This document shows, in pieces, positions 2,372 through 57,667 of a stretch of 64,000 nucleotides of DNA. The first letter of the stretch is position 1, and each line of letters opens with the position of its first letter. The DNA is from a virus, in the IMG/VR virus record IMGVR_UViG_3300031578_009495, positions 3,128 through 67,127 of that record; one strand, 5' to 3'. The notes beneath the pieces are model-generated. The model saw only the letters and a list, made by a program, of their open reading frames with translations. It was not told the origin of the DNA and ran no database searches. The translations under genes and the position numbers were made by a program.

Positions 2372-2557
2372 ATGAGGCGAGTAAATGTTATTGATGCAGA
2401 AAAAATGACAAGGAAACAGATGGAAGAGTTTTTAATGGAGAGAGGTTATCGAAATAGGATTTTGTTAGATAGAAAATTAGATAAAATTTTCATAATATTT
2501 ACCGTTGTGATCTGTTCTGCAGTGTTGATACTGCTTGGCTTGGCATTATTATTTTAA
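2372..2557 (+). CDS. small membrane protein
   Basis: SD GGAGG at 2359-2363 favours ATG 2372 over 2330; hydrophobic C-terminal helix. Confidence 0.5.
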   Translation: MRRVNVIDAEKMTRKQMEEFLMERGYRNRILLDRKLDKIFIIFTVVICSAVLILLGLALLF

Positions 2558-2685
2558 AGGCATTAGGGGGTGATTATGTACGCTGATTATATATGGGGTA
2601 TCGGATGGTTAGCTTTTGTGGTGGCTTGGGGTCGCTTTTTGTATCTTTTGTTTACTGATGTATACGAAATAGAATTGAGCAGATT

Positions 2686-4749
2686 ATGGAAAAGAATACA
2701 GTGTTTTATAAGCATGTAAATGCCAAAGCTGTAATACAAGATGGAAGTCCCATAAATGGGATAATACCAGACACAACGAATCGCTATAGCCAAATAGCCC
2801 AAAACACCACAGACCTAAGACCATTAATAAAATCATTAAACCTGCCGGAAGGCAAAGCTCAAGATCTTATATCGCAGATAGAAACATTGCGTGGAAATGA
2901 GACAGAAATGTTTATGGATATACTCAAAGAATTAAGTGATGGTGGTGAAAGCCAAAGTCTTAATAGTATAGTTAGCGATACATACGATGAGATTCCTGTA
3001 GATATTGAAACATTTTTCAGTAACAGTAACTATCTTGGCAGGGCTGGAGCAGACCTGTATCCTAAGTTAATGGAAGACCTTCTCAGATTGTTTAATGGGA
3101 ACTATACGGAAGTAATTTTAAGTGGAGCGATTGGTTATGGAAAAAGCTATTTAACACAGCTAATAATTTGTAGAATCCTGTATGAAGTCAGTTGTTTGAG
3201 AAATCCACAGTGGGCATACGGCCTTGCAGAAAACTCAACACTATTCTTTCCTAATATATCTGTGACGGAAACACAGGCAAAAAGAGTTATATTTGGAGGT
3301 ATAAAGGAGGCTCTCCGTGTATCACCATACTTTCGAGACCAGTTCCCTTTCGAAATGTATTCAACGGAAATGAAATTCCCTAAAAACATATTACTTGGAG
3401 CCATAGCTATGTCAGGCGCTCTTGGTATGGATGTGTTTGCAGCGGCAATGGACGAAACGAACTTTATGGATGTAGTGGAATCGTCAAGACAGGCCAGGGG
3501 AAAAAAATACGATCAGGCTGAAATAATTTATTCGTCTCTTGCAAGACGAATGAAATCAAGATTTTTAAAAAGAGGTAAGTTGCCTGGGATGCTTGTAATG
3601 CTATCGTCTGTTAACTACCCGAATGATTTTACTGAAAGAAAAAAAGAAGAGGCAAAAGAAAACCCGCTATTATTTGTTCTTGATTATGCACTATGGGAGC
3701 CAAAACCTGCAGGAACATATATGGATGAAAAATTTTGGATAAGCATGGGGACAGAGAACCAGCCCCCAAGAGTGATTGAAGACGAAGAAGAAGCTAAAAT
3801 AGAAATAGAAAGAGGTGTAGAGGTAATTGCACCACCTCTTGATTTCCTTCCTGACTTTAAAAGAGACATAGAGGGAGCGTTAAAGGACATAGCAGGCAAA
3901 AGCAAACTGCTTATTAACAGATTTATTACACAAACCGAAAAGATTTTTGAAAAGATAAACATAAACAGAAAACACCCATTTTCTCAACTACAAACAACGC
4001 TTGTAGATGGTGGTAAGTTTATTAGAGAATTGCTTGCGCATCAAATACCTGGCGCCGAAGGAAGTCCTGTATGGAGACCAATAGTAAGTCCATACACAAG
4101 ACGGTTTGGGCATATTGATCTTGCTGTAACTGGAGATGCGGCAGGATTTTGCATAGGGCATCCTAATGGAGAGATTCAGGTAACAAGAAGGAACGAAAAC
4201 CAGGAATTATATTCAGAGATAATGCCTATAGTTTATATAGATATTATGTTAAAAATTATACCACCGCAAGGGTCTGAAATTAATTTCGGAAATATTCGGA
4301 GTTTGTTATATGAACTACAATCTATGGGTTTTCTTTTTGAAAAAGTTACGCTTGATTCATATCAAAGTGTTGACACTATACAGATATTAAATGGACGCGG
4401 TATAAAGGCTGAAGATCTTTCAGTTGACACGTCTATGGAGCCTTACAATGAAGTTAAAAGTGCATTGTATGAAGACAGGCTTATGATGTATTGGTACGAT
4501 TTTGCATTAGATGAATTAAAAAGTCTTATAGTCTCAAGAAGTGGTAGCAAGGTTAAGGTGGATCACCTGCAAGGAAAGTCGAAAGATGTTTCAGACTGTA
4601 TAGCCGGAGTGGTATATAATTGCGTACAATGGATGCGGAATCCTAAGCGAGCGCCGGCACCTGGTCCAAGCCTGGGATATTTCTCAGGAGATGTTCAGGT
4701 AGAAAAGAAACCGGGAGATCTCGGAGAAGATGATTGGATAGATGGATAG
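2686..4749 (+). CDS. terL: terminase large subunit
   Basis: Walker A SGAIGYGKS, Walker B AAAMDETNF, RNaseH-like nuclease HIDLAVTGDAAGF, VTLDSYQS, DHLQGKSKDVSDCIAG. Confidence 0.9.
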   Translation: MEKNTVFYKHVNAKAVIQDGSPINGIIPDTTNRYSQIAQNTTDLRPLIKSLNLPEGKAQDLISQIETLRGNETEMFMDILKELSDGGESQSLNSIVSDTYDEIPVDIETFFSNSNYLGRAGADLYPKLMEDLLRLFNGNYTEVILSGAIGYGKSYLTQLIICRILYEVSCLRNPQWAYGLAENSTLFFPNISVTETQAKRVIFGGIKEALRVSPYFRDQFPFEMYSTEMKFPKNILLGAIAMSGALGMDVFAAAMDETNFMDVVESSRQARGKKYDQAEIIYSSLARRMKSRFLKRGKLPGMLVMLSSVNYPNDFTERKKEEAKENPLLFVLDYALWEPKPAGTYMDEKFWISMGTENQPPRVIEDEEEAKIEIERGVEVIAPPLDFLPDFKRDIEGALKDIAGKSKLLINRFITQTEKIFEKININRKHPFSQLQTTLVDGGKFIRELLAHQIPGAEGSPVWRPIVSPYTRRFGHIDLAVTGDAAGFCIGHPNGEIQVTRRNENQELYSEIMPIVYIDIMLKIIPPQGSEINFGNIRSLLYELQSMGFLFEKVTLDSYQSVDTIQILNGRGIKAEDLSVDTSMEPYNEVKSALYEDRLMMYWYDFALDELKSLIVSRSGSKVKVDHLQGKSKDVSDCIAGVVYNCVQWMRNPKRAPAPGPSLGYFSGDVQVEKKPGDLGEDDWIDG

Positions 4750-9547: not shown

Positions 9548-12319
9548 ATGGGAATCATCAATAATATAAAATCAGGATTAATAGGCAGAATAAAAAATCT
9601 GATAAGCAAAGGTGGTCAGGATATAGGTGGCGTAGATGGAATAAGTCAGGAAAAGCATTCGTCCGGAGACACAACCGAAATCGGCAGACATGGAGACGAA
9701 AGTGAAGGTACAGGAGCTGGTGATTTTTATTACAAAAAAATGATAGTTGAAAGAACCAGACTTGCATCGTATGTCGATTATGAATTAATGGATGCAGAGC
9801 ACCCAGAACTCTCTTCGAGCCTCGATGTATATTCTGATGTGGCTGTAGCTGGTGAAGAATCAGAAGATCAGCGATTTGCAATAGACAGCGAGGACGATAA
9901 AGTTAAGGAAGTTTTACAAGATATCAACAAACGAACCAGAATAGACCAGGAGCTATGGCCATTAACCCGCGATCTTTGCAAATACGGAGATGAGTTTGAA
10001 GAAATAGTGGTAAGCAGTGCCGGACTTATTGTCCGCCTTAAATCCCTCCCACAAAACGAAATGTTCCGGAATGAAGACAAATACGGCCTATTGCTTGAGG
10101 AAAGAGCTTTCGAACAAAAAGACACCCTTACGACAAAAGTTCTTGCACAATTTGAACCATGGCAGATAGCGCACTTTAGAAATAGGACGAGCAGAAAAGG
10201 ACAATATGGAAGCAGTATATTTTCACCAGCAAGAAGACTATTTAAACAACTTCAAATGATGGAAGATGGAATGATAGTTGGTCGGCTTGCAAGGTCCCAC
10301 ATGAGATATGTGTATAAGATAGACGTAGGAGAATTGCCACCACCAGAGGCCGAAGCTCACGTAGAAAGTGTGAAAAGACGAATAAAGAAAAAGCGCCGGC
10401 TGAATCCAATAACCGGAAAATTTGATGTCACCTCTAACCCTCTGAGCGCGGAAGAGGATATGTTTGTAGGGGTACGAACAGGAAGCCAAGCAGGAATCAC
10501 GAAACTTGAAGGAGCGAGTAGGCTGGATGCGATAAAGGATGTTGAATATTTTCAAAACAAAATGTTCACGGTTGTTAAGGTGCCGAAGTCTTATCTTGGA
10601 TTGGAAAAAGATGTATGTCTTGCTGGTGAAACAAAGATATCACTACTTGACGGAAGGGAAGTAGCGATTAAGGATCTCGTAGAGATGTATCCGGATGGAA
10701 AGAAATTCTATGTATATAGCATAGGGCCAGATAATGTTATGTCTGTGGGTGTGGCGCACAGTGCACGGCCTACAAGACGCAATGCAGAGATGGTTAAAGT
10801 TGTCTTAGATAATGGAGAATCTGTGCGCTGTACGCCAGATCATCTATGGATGAGAAGAGATGGAACGTATGTAATGGCTAAGAATTTGAGACCAGATGAT
10901 TCACTTATGCCATTGTATCGAAAAGTATCTGAAAAGGGTAAAAATCCTATCTATGGATATGAAATGTATAAAAATCCAAGGAGGGGAGCTTGGTGTTATA
11001 CGCATAGGATGGTTGGAAAATGGCTTGGAAGGCCTGAATTTCCCGACTGGACATATGGTGTTCAGCACCATGCAGATTTTAATAAAAGGAATAATTGCCC
11101 AACAAATATTGAATGGATGGAATTTTGGGATCATTTAAAACTTCATCAAGATAATGTCCATAGATTAAATACTCCAGAGATGAAGGCAAGAGCACGTATC
11201 GGAATAATAAATTCTGAAAAATTCAAGAAGAGATTGTTAGAATGGAATAAATGTGAAGAAAAGAGAGAAATATGCAAGCAAGCTATGCTTAAATATCACC
11301 AAGAAAATGATTTTACAGGTGAAAATAACCCGAATTATAAAACAGAACTAACCTTAGAAAAAATCATGAAAATGGTTAAAGAAGCATGTTGTTTAAACAG
11401 ATATGATATGGAGAAGCAATTCAAAATAACATATCCATTGCTTATTAGCAGATTGAAAAAAGAAGGAATGAGCTACAAAGAATTCGCCAATCAGTGTTTT
11501 ATTTATGGCTGGCAACATAAAGGCAATTTGTTTAATGATATTCCAATGGAAGGAATCATTGATCAGACAAGAGAAGGCATGCCATTGAAAAAGATAGCCA
11601 AAAGCTTTGAATGCTCTATAGATACTATCAGAAGAATCTGCCACGATCATGATGTTGATAATTTCAAAGATTTAAAAGAAGCCCCATTCAATCATAAGGT
11701 GGTATCTGTGGAACCTGATGGTATGGATGATATTACATATGACATAACAGTAGAAGGGTTAAATAATTTTGCCTTGAGTGTAGGCGTGTTTGTTCATAAT
11801 TCATCCAAGGCATTGCTTTCGAATCAGGATATTCAATTTTTACGTACCATAAGGCGCATCCAACATGTCACCCTAAAGAACGGTCTGAAAAAGATTTATG
11901 ATGTTGGATTATTACTTCAGGGATATGATTTAACGAAAGCAAAATACGAGATTCTTTTTCCCTCAGTGAAAACAGCGGACGAGGTCCGTAAATGGGAAAT
12001 CGAAAAGGCAAAAGCAGAAGCAGCAAAGATATATGGTCTTGACTTGAATGTAGTAACGGATGATTTTATACTCAGCTATTTCCTCGGGCTGTCGGATGAA
12101 GAAATAAAAGATTTGAATATAGTAAGAGAGAAAGAAACAGAAAAGGCAAAGAAAGCAGCCGATGTAGAGGCCGCAGCACAGATTGCAAAGGCACAGGCTG
12201 CTATTAAAGCTGGCGGTAAGGCAGAAGATACTATCAATCTTATGCGGACATTGAATGAATTAAAAGATGTTGTTGCAATGGAGCTTGAGGGAAAGAAATA
12301 TAACAGGCTGATAGAATAA
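9548..12319 (+). CDS. portal protein (T4 gp20-like), intein-containing
   Basis: IVERTRLASYVDYELMDAEHPELSSSLDVYSD, QIAHFR, MMEDGMIVGRLAR, VYKIDVGELPPPEAEAHV, EYFQNKMFTVVKVPKSYL, QFLRTIRRIQ. Confidence 0.9.
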   Translation: MGIINNIKSGLIGRIKNLISKGGQDIGGVDGISQEKHSSGDTTEIGRHGDESEGTGAGDFYYKKMIVERTRLASYVDYELMDAEHPELSSSLDVYSDVAVAGEESEDQRFAIDSEDDKVKEVLQDINKRTRIDQELWPLTRDLCKYGDEFEEIVVSSAGLIVRLKSLPQNEMFRNEDKYGLLLEERAFEQKDTLTTKVLAQFEPWQIAHFRNRTSRKGQYGSSIFSPARRLFKQLQMMEDGMIVGRLARSHMRYVYKIDVGELPPPEAEAHVESVKRRIKKKRRLNPITGKFDVTSNPLSAEEDMFVGVRTGSQAGITKLEGASRLDAIKDVEYFQNKMFTVVKVPKSYLGLEKDVCLAGETKISLLDGREVAIKDLVEMYPDGKKFYVYSIGPDNVMSVGVAHSARPTRRNAEMVKVVLDNGESVRCTPDHLWMRRDGTYVMAKNLRPDDSLMPLYRKVSEKGKNPIYGYEMYKNPRRGAWCYTHRMVGKWLGRPEFPDWTYGVQHHADFNKRNNCPTNIEWMEFWDHLKLHQDNVHRLNTPEMKARARIGIINSEKFKKRLLEWNKCEEKREICKQAMLKYHQENDFTGENNPNYKTELTLEKIMKMVKEACCLNRYDMEKQFKITYPLLISRLKKEGMSYKEFANQCFIYGWQHKGNLFNDIPMEGIIDQTREGMPLKKIAKSFECSIDTIRRICHDHDVDNFKDLKEAPFNHKVVSVEPDGMDDITYDITVEGLNNFALSVGVFVHNSSKALLSNQDIQFLRTIRRIQHVTLKNGLKKIYDVGLLLQGYDLTKAKYEILFPSVKTADEVRKWEIEKAKAEAAKIYGLDLNVVTDDFILSYFLGLSDEEIKDLNIVREKETEKAKKAADVEAAAQIAKAQAAIKAGGKAEDTINLMRTLNELKDVVAMELEGKKYNRLIE
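10616..11800 (+). mobile_element. 395-aa intein with HNH homing endonuclease
   Basis: block A CLAGETKISLLDG, block B VRCTPDHLW, HNH YTHRMV...HHADFNKRNNCPTNIEWM, block F YDITVEGLNNF, block G FVHN followed by Ser. Confidence 0.92.
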
Positions 12320-41683: not shown

Positions 41684-42961
41684 ATGGGAGAAGGTATATT
41701 CTATCCTTCAATTAGTAGTGACGATGGGTATTGGTCAGGAACTAATTTTTTTAATAGTCTTGAAGGTTTAACAATAGGAGATATATCTGGAAATCCTTAC
41801 AAAAGTTTTATTAGATTTAAGAATATAACAATACCCCAAGGTAGTAAAATACTTAGTGCATTTATTCGATATACTGCACGTTTTTCTAATTCTGGATTAC
41901 CAGTAAATGCAGGGATTTTTTTCAACAACACGGATAACGCTATTGCCCCTACGAATTATTTAGAGGCAGACAATCTTAACCTGACTATTCCGTCCATAGC
42001 ATGGAGTATAGGAGAATGGACAGAACAAGAGCAATACGATACGCCTAGTATAGTTTCGCATCTACAAACAGTTATAGACCGTCCAGGATGGTATAGTAAT
42101 GTCATGGCGGTTATATGGGATAAAACGTCAAGTAGTGATCGAAATTGCTATTCTTATGATTATAATTACGGTGAAAAATGCCCTGAATTACATGTTACAT
42201 GGTCTTTACCTGAAAACATTACGGATATTCGTACAGAAATAGCTGCCGATTTTTATACAGGTTGGTTGCACTTACCTTCTGAGGTTTCTGCTGGAGTAAA
42301 AGCTTTCCAGTATTTAAAAAGTAGGATCGAAGCTGGAAATATATCTTTATCTGATTTACTCTCCGAAATAAAAGCTGGAAATTTATCTTTTACAGACTTA
42401 CTTTCTGAGGTTTCTGCTGGAGTAAAAGCTTTCCAGTATTTAAAAAGTAGGATCGAAGCTGGAAATATATCTTTATCTGATTTACTCTCCGAAATAAAAG
42501 CTGGAAATTTATCTTTTACAGACTTACTTTCTGAAGTTATAGCAAATGCACAATCACTTACAGACTTACTTTCTGAAATAGATACCAGCGCACTTAGCAT
42601 TAAAGATATCAATAGCTTTATAGAAAGTGAATATCCGACTTGGAGCAAGTTTTTACTTCTAAGCCATGATCATGTTCCTGCGCGAAATGCTTTAAATGTT
42701 AAAATTGGTAAAGCAATGCAGTTTAGAGTCTATAACCCAGATCCTTTATTTGGAATAGACTTAACCACATTTAAAATAAGATTCAATGAAGGCACCTGGT
42801 ACAGATATGGAGATACGAGGCTTACATTTACCGAAGTAAGTTATAGAGAATATTTGGTTTACTTCAATCCGCCGGCCTTCGATTATAATAGTCAGATAGA
42901 TTTGGAACTGTACTGCGAAGACCATAGAAATAACCCTGGAATCAAATTGGAAATTTTATGA
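41684..42961 (+). CDS. tail/fibre protein with 14-aa DLxxEIxA repeats
   Basis: N-terminal beta-sandwich (FIRFKNITIPQGSKILSA..PELHVTW), repeat shaft, C-terminal Ig-like GIDLTT domain. Confidence 0.65.
   Translation: MGEGIFYPSISSDDGYWSGTNFFNSLEGLTIGDISGNPYKSFIRFKNITIPQGSKILSAFIRYTARFSNSGLPVNAGIFFNNTDNAIAPTNYLEADNLNLTIPSIAWSIGEWTEQEQYDTPSIVSHLQTVIDRPGWYSNVMAVIWDKTSSSDRNCYSYDYNYGEKCPELHVTWSLPENITDIRTEIAADFYTGWLHLPSEVSAGVKAFQYLKSRIEAGNISLSDLLSEIKAGNLSFTDLLSEVSAGVKAFQYLKSRIEAGNISLSDLLSEIKAGNLSFTDLLSEVIANAQSLTDLLSEIDTSALSIKDINSFIESEYPTWSKFLLLSHDHVPARNALNVKIGKAMQFRVYNPDPLFGIDLTTFKIRFNEGTWYRYGDTRLTFTEVSYREYLVYFNPPAFDYNSQIDLELYCEDHRNNPGIKLEIL
42277..42534 (+). repeat. exact 126-bp tandem duplication (42 aa) within the CDS
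   Basis: units start at 42277 and 42403; identity continues to 42534. Confidence 0.9.
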
Positions 42962-43206
42962 AAACAGTGTCAAATATTGTAAGCAGTCTCAAAAAAGATT
43001 TATACAATTACACCTGTAATGCTGACGTTCAGGCATCCAGGAACATCGCTGAAGTTGGGCTAAATGCCTCTCTTCAAGAGCGGCCTGACACCGCTCCAGA
43101 TAATGCTGGGACTGAGTTAGAAAGCTCGGTCTGATGTGGTTTAAAAACCACAAACTTTGGTTCTATGTTAGAACCCCACGTGTTTCAACCGTGGGAGTAT
43201 GTCAGA
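42958..43206 (+). mobile_element. TnpB element remnant: 3' tnpB fragment plus omegaRNA/right end
   Basis: YTCNADVQASRNIAEVGLNA matches the tnpB C-terminus FQCNSDYGASRNIAEVGLNA; 43109-43206 matches the reverse complement of 54538-54635 at 95/98 nt. Confidence 0.88.
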
Positions 43207-43373
43207 ATGCTTTTGTTGTAGAGCTTAGAGATGCAGCTTTACTGGTATTGCAAAGCGACCGAAAAGATGAAAAAGAAAAGAGACTTTTGAACAAAAGATT
43301 AGAAAAAGCTGTGAAAAACATTGGCGCAATTAATGGTGATCATGGAGCGATCTCCACTGGATAGGATTTATCT

Positions 43374-43889
43374 ATGCCGACATGCATTCTCATTACAGAC
43401 CTAAAATCTGAGATTTCAGTTGAACAAAGGATCCCTTCCCTTACTGATCTTCTGTCTGAAATATCTGCCTATAACTATCATACCAGCTTTAAAGATTTAA
43501 GCGCTTCAATAGCGGCCAGAGTCCCTTATATTGATTTAAAAACTGAAATCTCTGCCGGCTTTCCTGTAGATACTTCCGGCCCGTATATCCTACCAGAAAC
43601 TTACCCAAGAGACGGGGAGGGCGGTATTGGTATATACGGGCCTATTTTTATAGTAGTTGAAGATTTGATTTCCGGAATTGATTTAAGTTCGCTTGAACTA
43701 ACTGTAAATTCTGTAGTTTATACTCAAGAGGATTCCGAGGTGACGTGTTTGCCTATAACTATTCCATACAGGTATGTGATAAGATATGTCCCTATTATAC
43801 CTTGGAGTTTAGATAGTGAAGTTATTATATCTATTTTTATTAAAGATAGGGCAGGTAATCCAGGAATGGTTGATTTGATATTACACTAA
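43374..43889 (+). CDS. tail protein with DLxxEIxA repeats and Ig-like domain
   Basis: TDLKSEISV, TDLLSEISA, IDLKTEISA; SGIDLSSLELTVN. Confidence 0.6.
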   Translation: MPTCILITDLKSEISVEQRIPSLTDLLSEISAYNYHTSFKDLSASIAARVPYIDLKTEISAGFPVDTSGPYILPETYPRDGEGGIGIYGPIFIVVEDLISGIDLSSLELTVNSVVYTQEDSEVTCLPITIPYRYVIRYVPIIPWSLDSEVIISIFIKDRAGNPGMVDLILH

Positions 43890-54500: not shown

Positions 54501-54532
54501 GTCGCTCCCGCATGGGGAGCGTGGATTGAAAC
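54501..54532 (+). CRISPR. solitary type I-C CRISPR repeat (no array)
   Basis: GTCGCTCCCGCATGGGGAGCGTGGATTGAAAC; stem GCTCCC/GGGAGC; canonical GTCGC...GTGGATTGAAAC ends. Confidence 0.82.
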
Positions 54533-54538
54533 GAACAT

Positions 54539-54700
54539 CTGACATATTCCCACGGTTAAAACACGTGGGGTTCTAACATAGAACCAAAGTTTGTGGTTTT
54601 TAAACCACATCAGGCCGAGCTTTCTAACTCAGTCCGGCTTAAAGCCGAGGCATATCAGTGTGCCTCTTGAGATTGAGCGTTTAGCCCAACCTCAGCGATG
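54539..54700 (-). ncRNA. TnpB omegaRNA scaffold (5' boundary approximate)
   Basis: structured region overlapping the tnpB 3' end through the right end; conserved in the second copy at 43109-43206. Confidence 0.65.
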
Positions 54701-55773
54701 TTCCGAGATGCGCCATAATCAGAATTGCACTGAAAATCACATTTCTTGCATCGGAAATTAGCTTGAGTTTGTCGATTAGAGCGAGAAGTGAAACCGCATT
54801 TATAGCACCGTCTCGACGTGTTTCTTGGGTCAACCAGCAACACCTCAATGCCAATACGTCTTGATTTATAAATTGTGAAATCAACCAATTGTTTAAAAGC
54901 CCAAGACGACATCATTCGATTAAATCGTTTGGATCCTCTTGCTCGTTCTCTAATGCCTTCAAGTTTCTCAAAACAAATAACAGGGTTGTCATATTGAGCA
55001 GCTATATCGACAATCTCTTTACTAATTTTATGGTTGGTATCAGTCATCCATCTTCGTTCATGGCCTCTCGACATTTTAACCTTGTCAATCCTGCCATGCT
55101 TCTGATACCTTTTACGGATATCAGCAAAATGTTCTCTTTTGTGCCTGATTTCTTTGCCATCAAATATCTTAACCATATCAGGCGTAGAAAGAGTTGCAAT
55201 GCGGACTATTCCAAGGTCAATGCCGATAAAAGTTTTGTCACCGGAACGTCCGGCAGGCATTGTTTTGACTGGAAGCATTGCGTACCACTGGCCATTGCGT
55301 TGAAAAAGCTTAGCGTCACCTTTAACAGATTTAATTCTATCTTTAAACTTTTCTGGCACACAAAGCGGAAGCCAAATATATTCACCACGTTTCCCTGTAG
55401 AGCAGCGCAAGGCAACCCTGTTGTCAGTGGTCTCAATCGAATAAGCATTAACACCAAGTCCAATACCTTGACAACCATTAACCTTCGGAAATTGAGCATT
55501 CTTTTGTTTCTTTCTCAGTTGGAAAAAAGAACGAGCAAGAGAAACCGCAGCATTAACGCTCATTCTTGCATAGTCAGAAGGCAACCCAAGCTTGCGTGCA
55601 GGATAATAAGAAACATTATGTATCTTACCCCTGGAGCTGGTAGAAAGATCGTTTGCAGCATCAAGACCGAGTTGAACAGCATTAGAAAATATATTAGCCA
55701 TATTCTCAAGCCATTCAGCTTTGTGTTTATTTGGTTTGATAATTTTAACTATGACGGCTTCTGTGTTTTGCAT
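54655..55773 (-). CDS. tnpB: TnpB RNA-guided nuclease (RuvC triad intact)
   Basis: IGIDLG (D), ICFEKL (E), CYKC/CKKC zinc finger, CNSDYGASRNI (D); start reassigned to ATG 55773. Confidence 0.93.
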   Translation of the reverse strand: MQNTEAVIVKIIKPNKHKAEWLENMANIFSNAVQLGLDAANDLSTSSRGKIHNVSYYPARKLGLPSDYARMSVNAAVSLARSFFQLRKKQKNAQFPKVNGCQGIGLGVNAYSIETTDNRVALRCSTGKRGEYIWLPLCVPEKFKDRIKSVKGDAKLFQRNGQWYAMLPVKTMPAGRSGDKTFIGIDLGIVRIATLSTPDMVKIFDGKEIRHKREHFADIRKRYQKHGRIDKVKMSRGHERRWMTDTNHKISKEIVDIAAQYDNPVICFEKLEGIRERARGSKRFNRMMSSWAFKQLVDFTIYKSRRIGIEVLLVDPRNTSRRCYKCGFTSRSNRQTQANFRCKKCDFQCNSDYGASRNIAEVGLNAQSQEAH

Positions 55774-55779
55774 AATCAT

Positions 55780-55808
55780 ATTATAGTTACGTAAAACGCA
55801 GTTGTCAA
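55780..55808 (-). promoter_or_regulatory. perfect sigma70 promoter for tnpB
   Basis: TTGACA(55808-55803)-17-TATAAT(55785-55780); ATG begins 7 nt downstream. Confidence 0.8.
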
Positions 55809-55899
55809 GTAATTTTATTAATATTTTTTTAAAAAAAAAAGAAAGGGTGCCGATTCCTCCCACGACTGAAGTACGTGGGCTTCCTCGGCATAAATAATC

Positions 55900-56313
55900 G
55901 TGAGCTTAATAACAACGCTCAAGTCGTTTCTATCAGCCCCAAAGGCTATAGACAAGGCTTTGGATGTCGGAGAGAAAATAACGTCAGGGATCATCTCTGG
56001 ACTGGACAAATTGGTTTTCACGGATGAGGAACTGGCTGACATAAAGCAGAAATCAAACGAACTCTTACTTGAATTCTGGGGGAAAATCGCAAATGAAAAC
56101 ACTGAACAGAGTAAAGCCAGGCGCTCTCTCGCCATGATGACGTTCAAAGTCTATTTCTTTTTGCTGCTGGCCGGTGTGGTGGTTTACAAAATAGATACAG
56201 CTTACTCTCAGTTTATTTTTGACGTGGCTGGTACTTTGACGTGGCTTGTTTCAGGTATTGCAGCGATTTTCTTTGGCCCCCACCAGTTGTCGAAAGTAAT
56301 TAAGAAAAAGTGA
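55900..56313 (+). CDS. holin-like protein (3TM GTA-holin type)
   Basis: LDKLVFTDEE motif and two C-terminal hydrophobic helices. Confidence 0.7.
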   Translation: MSLITTLKSFLSAPKAIDKALDVGEKITSGIISGLDKLVFTDEELADIKQKSNELLLEFWGKIANENTEQSKARRSLAMMTFKVYFFLLLAGVVVYKIDTAYSQFIFDVAGTLTWLVSGIAAIFFGPHQLSKVIKKK

Positions 56314-56463: not shown

Positions 56464-56769
56464 TCGAACGTAAAAGCTCAAAATCAAAAACCGTGCCAAC
56501 TATTCAGCGAAATAAGTAACCTGGCCATTTCAATCTCTGTTTATACAGGCCATCAGTTCCCCTCAGTTAAAAACTCAAAACCCCATATCATCCTATTCAA
56601 TACTTTTGAATTTAGTAATATCTGCAATCAAATCAACATATTACAGTACAAGTAAAATGATGATTTTTGAATAAATCGCTGTTTATGCAGTCTCTCAGTA
56701 AAAGAAAAACTATCGAACGTAAAAGCTCAAAATCAAAAACCGTGCCAACTATTCAGCGAAATAAGTAAC
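56464..56769. repeat. 57-bp exact direct repeat (56464-56520 and 56713-56769)
   Basis: read directly; contains TTGGCACGGTTTTTGAT on the minus strand. Confidence 0.9.
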
Positions 56770-56830
56770 AATTGTATTTTTTAATATATGTAGTTGTCAA
56801 GCAAATAATAAAAAATAATTAACAATTCAT

Positions 56831-56857
56831 CCCACGACTGAAGTGCGTGGGCTTTCT
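56831..56857 (-). repeat. solo IS200/IS605-type end hairpin
   Basis: CCCACGACTGAAGTGCGTGGGCTTTCT, near-identical to 55859-55885. Confidence 0.7.
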
Positions 56858-56905
56858 TGCCTAAAACGTCGTAACTAAAGAAAATAATTAAAATAATTTA
56901 AAAAC

Positions 56906-57251: not shown

Positions 57252-57286
57252 GTCAATAACCCACGACTAAAGTACGTGGGTTTCCT
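57252..57286. repeat. solo IS200/IS605-type end hairpin
   Basis: GTCAATAACCCACGACTAAAGTACGTGGGTTTCCT. Confidence 0.7.
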
Positions 57287-57301
57287 GCCCGGAGGTAAAT
57301 C

Positions 57302-57667
57302 ATGAATCTAAGTTGGCAAGAAGGATTAGAAGAGGCAAGTAAAAGAATGTCGGCTCCAAAAGAAAAACCAAAAGAGCAGATAAAAAACTACAATGTCAAT
57401 GGAGCGACAGAGCGGATTATGATAAAATCTTTGTATAACCTTTATGAATTAGATAAACTTGTTAAAAGAACCGGATTGAGCGGACTTGTGTCAAGGATAG
57501 AACCGATTGGAGAGTCATATTATCAAATTGATATGGTAAAGAAACCGGTCCTTGTTAGAGGAGATGAGACACAAAGAAATGTGTTGGAACTTTTGGGGCA
57601 GGTGGTTGCAAGTGCAAACGGATTGCACTGGAGCTTGGAGAAAAAAGAAGACACAGGATATTATTAG
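57302..57667 (+). CDS. hypothetical early protein
   Basis: SD GGAGGT. Confidence 0.6.
   Translation: MNLSWQEGLEEASKRMSAPKEKPKEQIKNYNVNGATERIMIKSLYNLYELDKLVKRTGLSGLVSRIEPIGESYYQIDMVKKPVLVRGDETQRNVLELLGQVVASANGLHWSLEKKEDTGYY

Follow-up and report, generated by a model that had tools for sequence, protein, structure and literature searches.

A standalone TnpB omegaRNA scaffold inserted in a small gene of a phage tail module

The stretch of DNA analyzed here, referred to as the window, comprises 64,000 nt of a virus genome (positions 3,128 to 67,127 of IMG/VR record IMGVR_UViG_3300031578_009495) and includes a module of tail genes that are tightly packed, are all encoded on the + strand and show no strong terminator between them. 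A 425-aa gene (41684-42961) and a 171-aa gene (43374-43889) in this module flank a small gene, orfX, the ATG of which overlaps the stop codon of the 425-aa gene. The two flanking genes have a common domain (28% identity over 190 aa), which suggests that they may represent paralogous tail-fibre or baseplate modules on either side of orfX. The 425-aa gene also contains a 126-nt tandem duplication (42270-42521, 99% identical) that encodes a repeated 42-aa unit, and because of this duplication the 425-aa protein is approximately 80-90 aa longer than its orthologues (335-345 aa). Relatives of the 171-aa gene numbered 40; orfX is rare and is without a known family. In six relatives (L017, L018, L019, L023, L025, and L026; 77-90% identity), the gap between the tail gene and the 171-aa gene is 4-26 nt long, and in L021 (90%), one of the two closest relatives as judged by the 171-aa gene, an intact orfX is located between both neighbors. 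Genes for other TnpB proteins were also observed at this locus; in L020, a TnpB with 27% identity (2534-3996) takes the place of the first two thirds of the tail gene, of which 108 aa remain at the C-terminus, and in L017 an HTH-type tnpB (409-1551) is located approximately 380 nt upstream of the tail gene. With related phages carrying other, unrelated tnpB genes there, this part of the tail module has the appearance of a TnpB insertion hot spot.

When compared with L021, the window contains 194 extra nt inside orfX (Table 1), with the orfX alignment continuing on both sides of this insert, hereafter the orphan. Excision of these 194 nt puts orfX back in frame and yields a junction that matches the L021 gene codon for codon. 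The left edge of the insert lies directly 3' of a TTAC tetranucleotide, the right edge coincides with the right-end terminus of a family of insertion sequence (IS) elements described below, and no target duplication is present. As the insert begins after TTAC and ends with the terminus of the family, its position is that of a genuine insertion by this IS family. Uninterrupted orfX alleles were found in four cases, including one available as DNA (L021, 74 aa) and three available as proteins only (P0165, P0168, and P0169), while the insert is known from one genome. A first-pass annotation of this DNA had placed a tnpB C-terminal fragment within a 58-aa open reading frame (ORF) at 42958-43134. 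This ORF exists and does hold the tnpB remnant, as it matches the last 25 residues of TnpB, with residues 19-40 aligning to a C-terminal segment of TnpB in which the last RuvC motif is found; its first 18 codons, however, are the N-terminus of the interrupted orfX. The idea that the ORF retains the tnpB start codon, as an internally deleted element in L032 does (see below), was rejected since L021 and P0165-P0169 show that this N-terminus is orfX's own.

Table 1. Features of the interrupted orfX locus and of the intact tnpB element in the window
Feature	Position	Strand	Basis
orfX N-terminal part, 18 codons	42958..43011	+	aligned to L021 (246-470), P0165, P0168, P0169
TTAC, target / transposon-adjacent motif (TAM), immediately 5' of the insert	43008..43011	+	L021 junction; IS608 parallel (PMC3201880)
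194-nt insert: tnpB 3' part and right end, together a complete omegaRNA scaffold	43012..43205	+	absent from L021
Right-end subterminal hairpin, TnpA-type imperfect palindrome	43175..43195	+	motif search; IS608 CR geometry (PMC3201880)
Putative 16-nt guide AATGCTTTTGTTGTAG, orfX sequence 3' of the insertion point	43206..43221	+	flanks diverge after ...GTCAG
orfX C-terminal part, 52 codons and stop	43206..43364	+	L021 and protein-allele alignments
16-nt cognate guide ATGTTCGTTTCAATCC	54523..54538	-	right-end boundary from alignment
Intact tnpB-only IS200/IS605 (IS608-like) element	54539..55899	-	end alignments with 8 relatives
Cognate omegaRNA scaffold	54539..54737	-	model R1, 187.1 bits
tnpB, 372 aa, RuvC D/E/D motifs and zinc-finger cysteines	54655..55773	-	Pfam PF07282, PF01385; PDB 8j3r_A alignment
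Sigma-70-type promoter TTGACA-17-TATAAT in left end, upstream of tnpB	55780..55808	-	conserved in family
Left-end subterminal hairpin	55859..55879	-	left-end alignment, motif search
TCAC motif at left end, 20 nt 5' of hairpin foot	55900..55903	-	left-end alignment

The orphan is related to an intact tnpB element that lies on the same genome, with the orphan and tnpB being 11 kb apart. A repeat search of the window identified the inverted arms 43109-43206 and 54538-54635 (98 nt, 97%, 95/98), i.e., the same arms for which the first-pass annotation had described a copy of the intact right end in opposite orientation, as well as a second, weaker inverted pair (43015-43080 and 54664-54729; 66 nt, 73%). 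The orphan and the intact element are the only two scaffold copies in the virus record (94,313 bp). The 372-aa TnpB encoded by the intact element matches the Pfam families Cas12f1-like_TNB and OrfB_IS605, and its TnpB motifs were read from an alignment to PDB 8j3r_A, a solved TnpB-family (IS605 OrfB) chain; judging from these motifs, the resident TnpB appears to be catalytically intact. With regard to the surroundings of the intact element, TnpB with the cognate guide would target TCAC-flanked copies of a repeat junction at 54501-54538.

TnpB relatives are many, with the closest ones (68-85% identity) found on metagenomic contigs; portal, terminase or other virion-type genes are located beside tnpB in 5 of 8 independent contigs. 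Searches of GenBank phages with blastn in near and distant modes yielded no match to either locus, single-protein scans of IMG/VR with TnpB or the 171-aa neighbor identified no relatives, and an exact scaffold 26-mer was not found in IMG/VR. Rfam and tRNA scans of the window also yielded nothing. On contig L007, the omegaRNA model gave a weak full-length match (16 bits, E 0.004) at 9756-9936, just upstream of the L007 tnpB, which may represent a decayed second copy or a reflection of the left-end hairpin.

Alignment of eight relatives and both window copies defined the ends of this family. At the right end, the scaffold extends from the tnpB 3' end to ...GTCAG, after which the flanks diverge; this divergence places the right-end boundary at 43205 for the orphan and at 54539 for the intact copy. 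In the orphan, the terminal TCAG at 43205 lies 10 nt 3' of the hairpin foot, exactly where the family flanks diverge. The left end consists of a subterminal hairpin (CCCACG-N9-CGTGGG) followed by a conserved TTGACA-17-TATAAT just before the tnpB start. Across independent insertions, TTAC is found 19-20 nt 5' of the foot of the left-end hairpin (TCAC in the intact copy and CTAC in L009), preceded by AAAG or GAAG at the hairpin foot. This organization matches that of IS608 from Helicobacter pylori, for which cleavage has been reported to occur after a TTAC located 19 nt 5' of the left hairpin, with the guide tetranucleotide AAAG, and at a right site located 10 nt 3' of the right hairpin (PMC3201880). 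The family described here likewise inserts 3' of TTAC, with a left site 19-20 nt 5' of the hairpin foot, an AAAG/GAAG guide tetranucleotide and 10 nt from the foot of the right hairpin to the right site; it differs from IS608 in that its right end is TCAG rather than TCAA, in that the hairpin sequences are unrelated, and in that the intact element in the window carries tnpB only and no tnpA. Given this IS608-like geometry and the position of the orphan directly after TTAC, the target motif is TTAC-like and not TTTAT, the TAM proposed previously. TTTAT is found inside the left end (element positions 6-10), and a TTTAT at 42955-42959 is part of the last codons of the tail gene, with the true junction located 50 nt downstream.

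A number of observations bear on the integrity of the RNA that the orphan would encode. In an RNAalifold consensus of 10 sequences, compensatory changes are seen at 25 of the 65 pairs; among pairs that can be aligned, 55 of 57 are preserved in the orphan and 54 of 56 in the intact copy. A covariance model (R1) built from nine family members, with the orphan left out, matched the orphan over its full length (model positions 1-220; 188.7 bits, E 3e-55), as compared to 187.1 bits for the intact copy. Relative to nine relatives, the orphan has 5 unique substitutions and the intact copy 14, and two of the five in the orphan form one compensatory pair (C-G to G-C). Homology of the orphan to the family sets in approximately 12 nt upstream of where pairing in the consensus starts, and the truncation thus spared the whole scaffold. 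As judged from this sequence and structure conservation, the insert is a real and structurally complete standalone omegaRNA scaffold, consistent with the identification of an omegaRNA scaffold at this site in the first-pass annotation. Cleavage by the ISDra2 system has been reported to require no more than the 3' 116-nt scaffold, with the 5' region and a flexible stem being dispensable (PMC10097598); the functional core would, by analogy, be the segment common to the orphan and the cognate RNA.

The orphan fold is also much more stable than that of shuffled sequence (about -80 kcal/mol; MFE z-score -4.96), and the scaffold contains two weak terminator-like hairpins. Both observations would fit a co-opted cis-acting RNA, i.e., a guide-independent mRNA processing, stability or attenuation element between tail genes, as would the finding that TnpB processes its own transcript into omegaRNA by cutting at the omegaRNA 5' end (PMC10278001), an activity that would split the late polycistron at this position. 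We consider a role of this type very improbable, however, as the same hairpins are found in every family member and are hence not specific to this site, and as related phages either have the short intergenic gaps described above or, in the case of L021, an intact orfX.

The two copies in the window differ in relatedness along their length. Identity between the orphan and the intact copy is 63/104 in the 5' part and 94/97 in the 3' part (Fisher p 7.5e-11), with 97% identity over the 3' 122 alignment columns. The nearest sequences to the 5' part of the orphan are found elsewhere in the family (91% to L003 over columns 19-72 and 77% to L005 over columns 73-104). The orphan is thus, on the basis of these alignments, a mosaic with a 5' part like that of other family members and a 3' part like that of the resident copy. 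The coding remnant had previously been described as diverged; while it does differ from the intact copy, its 91% identity to L003 places it near the family consensus and identifies the intact copy as the divergent one. The abrupt rise in identity at alignment column 105, from 61% to 97%, could reflect a recent gene conversion involving both copies of this genome, as could a deletion of approximately 20 nt in a hairpin, since this extension is present in 8/8 tnpB-linked relatives and missing from both window copies. The short hairpin might be taken as proof of such a conversion, but this argument is weakened by the recurrence of the same variant in the unrelated L032 mini-element, which is located on a bacterial metagenome-assembled genome (MAG) contig; the short form is hence the mark of a sub-lineage, not of an event confined to this genome. 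In addition, L012 is 98% identical to the intact copy over the last 56 columns, which indicates that much of the 97% identity in the 3' part represents family-wide conservation. An explanation of this identity by recent conversion, with no bearing on function, is rather unlikely in our view, and conversion as such concerns the origin of the orphan and would be compatible with either a functional or a fossil scaffold.

The orphan has no apparent means of transposition. In agreement with the earlier claim that a left-end hairpin is missing, no such hairpin was found near the orphan; CCCACG-N9-CGTGGG occurs in the window only at 43175, where it is the right-end hairpin of the orphan, and at 54549, 55859, 56831, and 57260. 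Upstream of the orphan, the stop codon of the tail gene is 50 nt away and the gap is filled by orfX sequence. No match to PF01797 (TnpA) was found in the 94-kb record, which is about 52% complete, and a copy in the host is possible. Without a left end and with no tnpA, encoding the Y1 transposase, in the record, the orphan cannot transpose, and because it lacks a left end it is neither a complete IS200/IS605 element nor a palindrome-associated element of the PATE type.

With regard to the origin of the orphan, we infer that an IS608-like tnpB element of the IS200/IS605 group inserted 3' of TTAC in orfX, between two tail-module genes, and that the left end and nearly all of tnpB were subsequently lost through an internal deletion. 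This deletion probably occurred between the flanking TTAC and a TAC or TTAC in the 3' end of tnpB, which would create the junction TTAC|ACCTG, and may have involved either microhomology or cutting of a TTAC by TnpA acting in trans. In relatives, the stretch of tnpB that corresponds to the left junction reads GG(G/A)-TA(C/T)-ACC-TGC, and the TAC or TAT that precedes ACCTGC in these relatives would supply the microhomology. Internal deletion recurs in this family, as L032 (a Deltaproteobacteria MAG contig, DAOUSD010000024.1) carries a 260-nt mini-element (3311-3570) beside a phage-type integrase; this element consists of TTAC, a left-end hairpin, a promoter, and an ATG with five tnpB codons fused to 135 nt from the omegaRNA 3' end, and it possibly hints at the host range of the IS family.

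Two further remnants were observed on the - strand of the window. A solo left end (LE2, 56760-56874) comprises a TTAC (56871-56874), a 19-nt linker, a hairpin (56831-56851) and a TTGACA...TACAAT promoter that is not followed by tnpB and that would drive transcription into 57-nt direct repeats (56713-56769 and 56464-56520). A third left-end-type hairpin (57260-57280, within 57260-57298) has a TTAC 14 nt upstream; on the + strand, this hairpin is located immediately before the ribosome binding site of a gene starting at 57302. The possibility that an inversion split one element into the orphan and LE2 (at 56.8 kb) was rejected, as it is the right-end fragment, and not a left end, that abuts the TTAC of orfX.

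The presence of these two solo left-end hairpins indicates that decay by deletion is common in this genome and that the orphan may simply be young. The orphan could hence be a neutral fossil, i.e., the undeleted tail of a dead IS copy that is perhaps transcribed and bound by TnpB without having a selected role, with its intactness explained by youth together with either recombination with the resident short-hairpin lineage or a shared descent from it. This explanation also draws on the independent internally deleted derivative in L032, on the family-wide conservation that accounts for much of the 97% identity in the 3' scaffold, and on the target searches described below, in which no target allele was found in viral_contigs, in genome_contigs or in L021. 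On the other hand, the endpoint of the deletion leaves the scaffold whole, no disruptive change is present in any of the 194 nt, the orphan has accumulated fewer unique changes than the active copy, and retention of the right end is not explicable by mobility once the left end is gone. We regard a fossil origin of the present sequence as a possibility that deserves serious attention, although we hold it at clearly less than even odds.

The reading that we favor, to which we assign a probability of roughly 55%, is that transcription of the late genes would also produce the orphan RNA, which the resident TnpB would take up as a second guide directed against uninterrupted orfX alleles that carry TTAC. 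Window scans identified no convincing promoter or terminator of the orphan's own; since it lies in sense orientation among the packed + strand late genes, read-through transcription with the tail genes is expected. A compatible effector is encoded in the same genome, with a scaffold of its own that is 97% identical to the orphan over the 3' 122 columns, and this TnpB could process and load the orphan RNA, given that standalone omegaRNAs (PMC10691335) and those encoded by PATEs (PMC10055086) are documented to work in trans with compatible effectors, in line with the statement in the first-pass annotation that TnpB can use omegaRNAs in trans. That annotation was also right in deriving a different guide from the flank; the sequence AATGCTTTTGTTGTAG that begins at 43206 is unlike the guide of the intact element, and it is unique in the window, where only four chance matches with 3 mismatches were found beyond its own site. 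A second TnpB ribonucleoprotein carrying this guide would cut TTAC followed by AATGCTTTTGTTGTAG, which corresponds to the uninterrupted orfX of co-infecting relatives, and repair from the present genome would then copy the insert along with nearby tail-gene sequence, which would amount to RNA-guided homing with the guide supplied in trans. The phage's own copy would be safe from the orphan guide, as the match there follows ...GTCAG and not a TAM.

The proposed target was evaluated against the available alleles. The suggestion that the guide matches an empty allele fits the sequence in that TAM and guide, when joined, reconstitute the uninterrupted orfX of the window type; it does not extend to L021, in which orfX has ATAT instead of TTAC as well as 5/16 guide mismatches (positions 6, 8, 9, 12, and 15). 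As TAM-proximal mismatches of this type have been reported to abolish cleavage by ISDra2 (PMC10097598), the L021 allele, with no TTAC and five mismatches, would not be cut under ISDra2 rules. The closest alleles, P0168 and P0169, for which only proteins are available, have D-Y|N-A-S at the junction, so that TTAC would be present if these residues are coded by GAT-TAC. The 20-nt guide alone had no match in viral_contigs, and TTAC with the 16-nt guide had no exact match in genome_contigs.

Standalone omegaRNAs of OMEGA systems have been described by Altae-Tran et al. 2021, as summarized in PMC10691335. Consistent with the cases outlined in that summary, the orphan has no adjacent effector or transposase, an effector locus of the same family is present in the genome, and the orphan guide differs from that of the effector locus; use in trans has been shown for published ones. 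The published standalone omegaRNAs, to the extent that this summary covers them, are evidently mobilized copies in bacterial genomes, whereas the orphan has lost its left end, is fixed in a phage gene that belongs to a late operon, and lacks its own promoter. The orphan also resembles the PATEs described by Meers et al. (PMC10055086) in being a tnpB-less IS200/IS605 derivative that keeps the omegaRNA and would depend on TnpB in trans; PATEs, however, keep both ends and are moved by TnpA, while the orphan has a right end only. The L032 mini-element, which has both ends, is the PATE-like case in the same family. The concept of standalone omegaRNAs acting in trans is thus already published, and what is new here is a well-resolved phage example.

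TnpB has been characterized as an RNA-guided homing endonuclease (Meers et al., PMC10055086; Zedaveinyte et al., PMC10690162). As in TnpB homing, the guide at the orphan corresponds to the DNA beside the right end and TAM plus guide corresponds to the vacant site, such that a cut followed by recombination would restore the element; the element in the present case, however, would be a 194-nt viral guide cassette, and the rival allele would be found in a co-infecting phage rather than on a sister chromosome. Taken further, the guide-only cassette might represent a transposase-independent RNA-guided homing element that functions in phage-phage competition, with one TnpB serving two or more loci, and with the orphan guide cutting the intact orfX of rivals and carrying the neighboring, highly variable tail genes into the progeny by co-conversion. 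Such an element would explain why related phages have acquired, at one and the same tail locus, three tnpB insertions that are unrelated; we nevertheless consider this extended role decidedly unlikely and put it forward as speculation.

The biological role of standalone omegaRNAs has been called unknown (PMC10691335), and the case described here is unusually well resolved in that it includes insert boundaries, a TAM, the empty allele of a relative, a nuclease in the same genome and no route for transposition. From this family also come a compact omegaRNA model that is supported by covariation and, for a clade of phage-borne TnpB proteins, a TAM of the TTAC type. If the orphan RNA is used, recombination triggered by TnpB would be its only route of spread, and the locus would allow RNA-guided homing between co-infecting viruses to be tested cleanly in a natural setting. 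It would also illustrate how the reach of a single phage nuclease can grow to several loci, for about 200 bp per locus.
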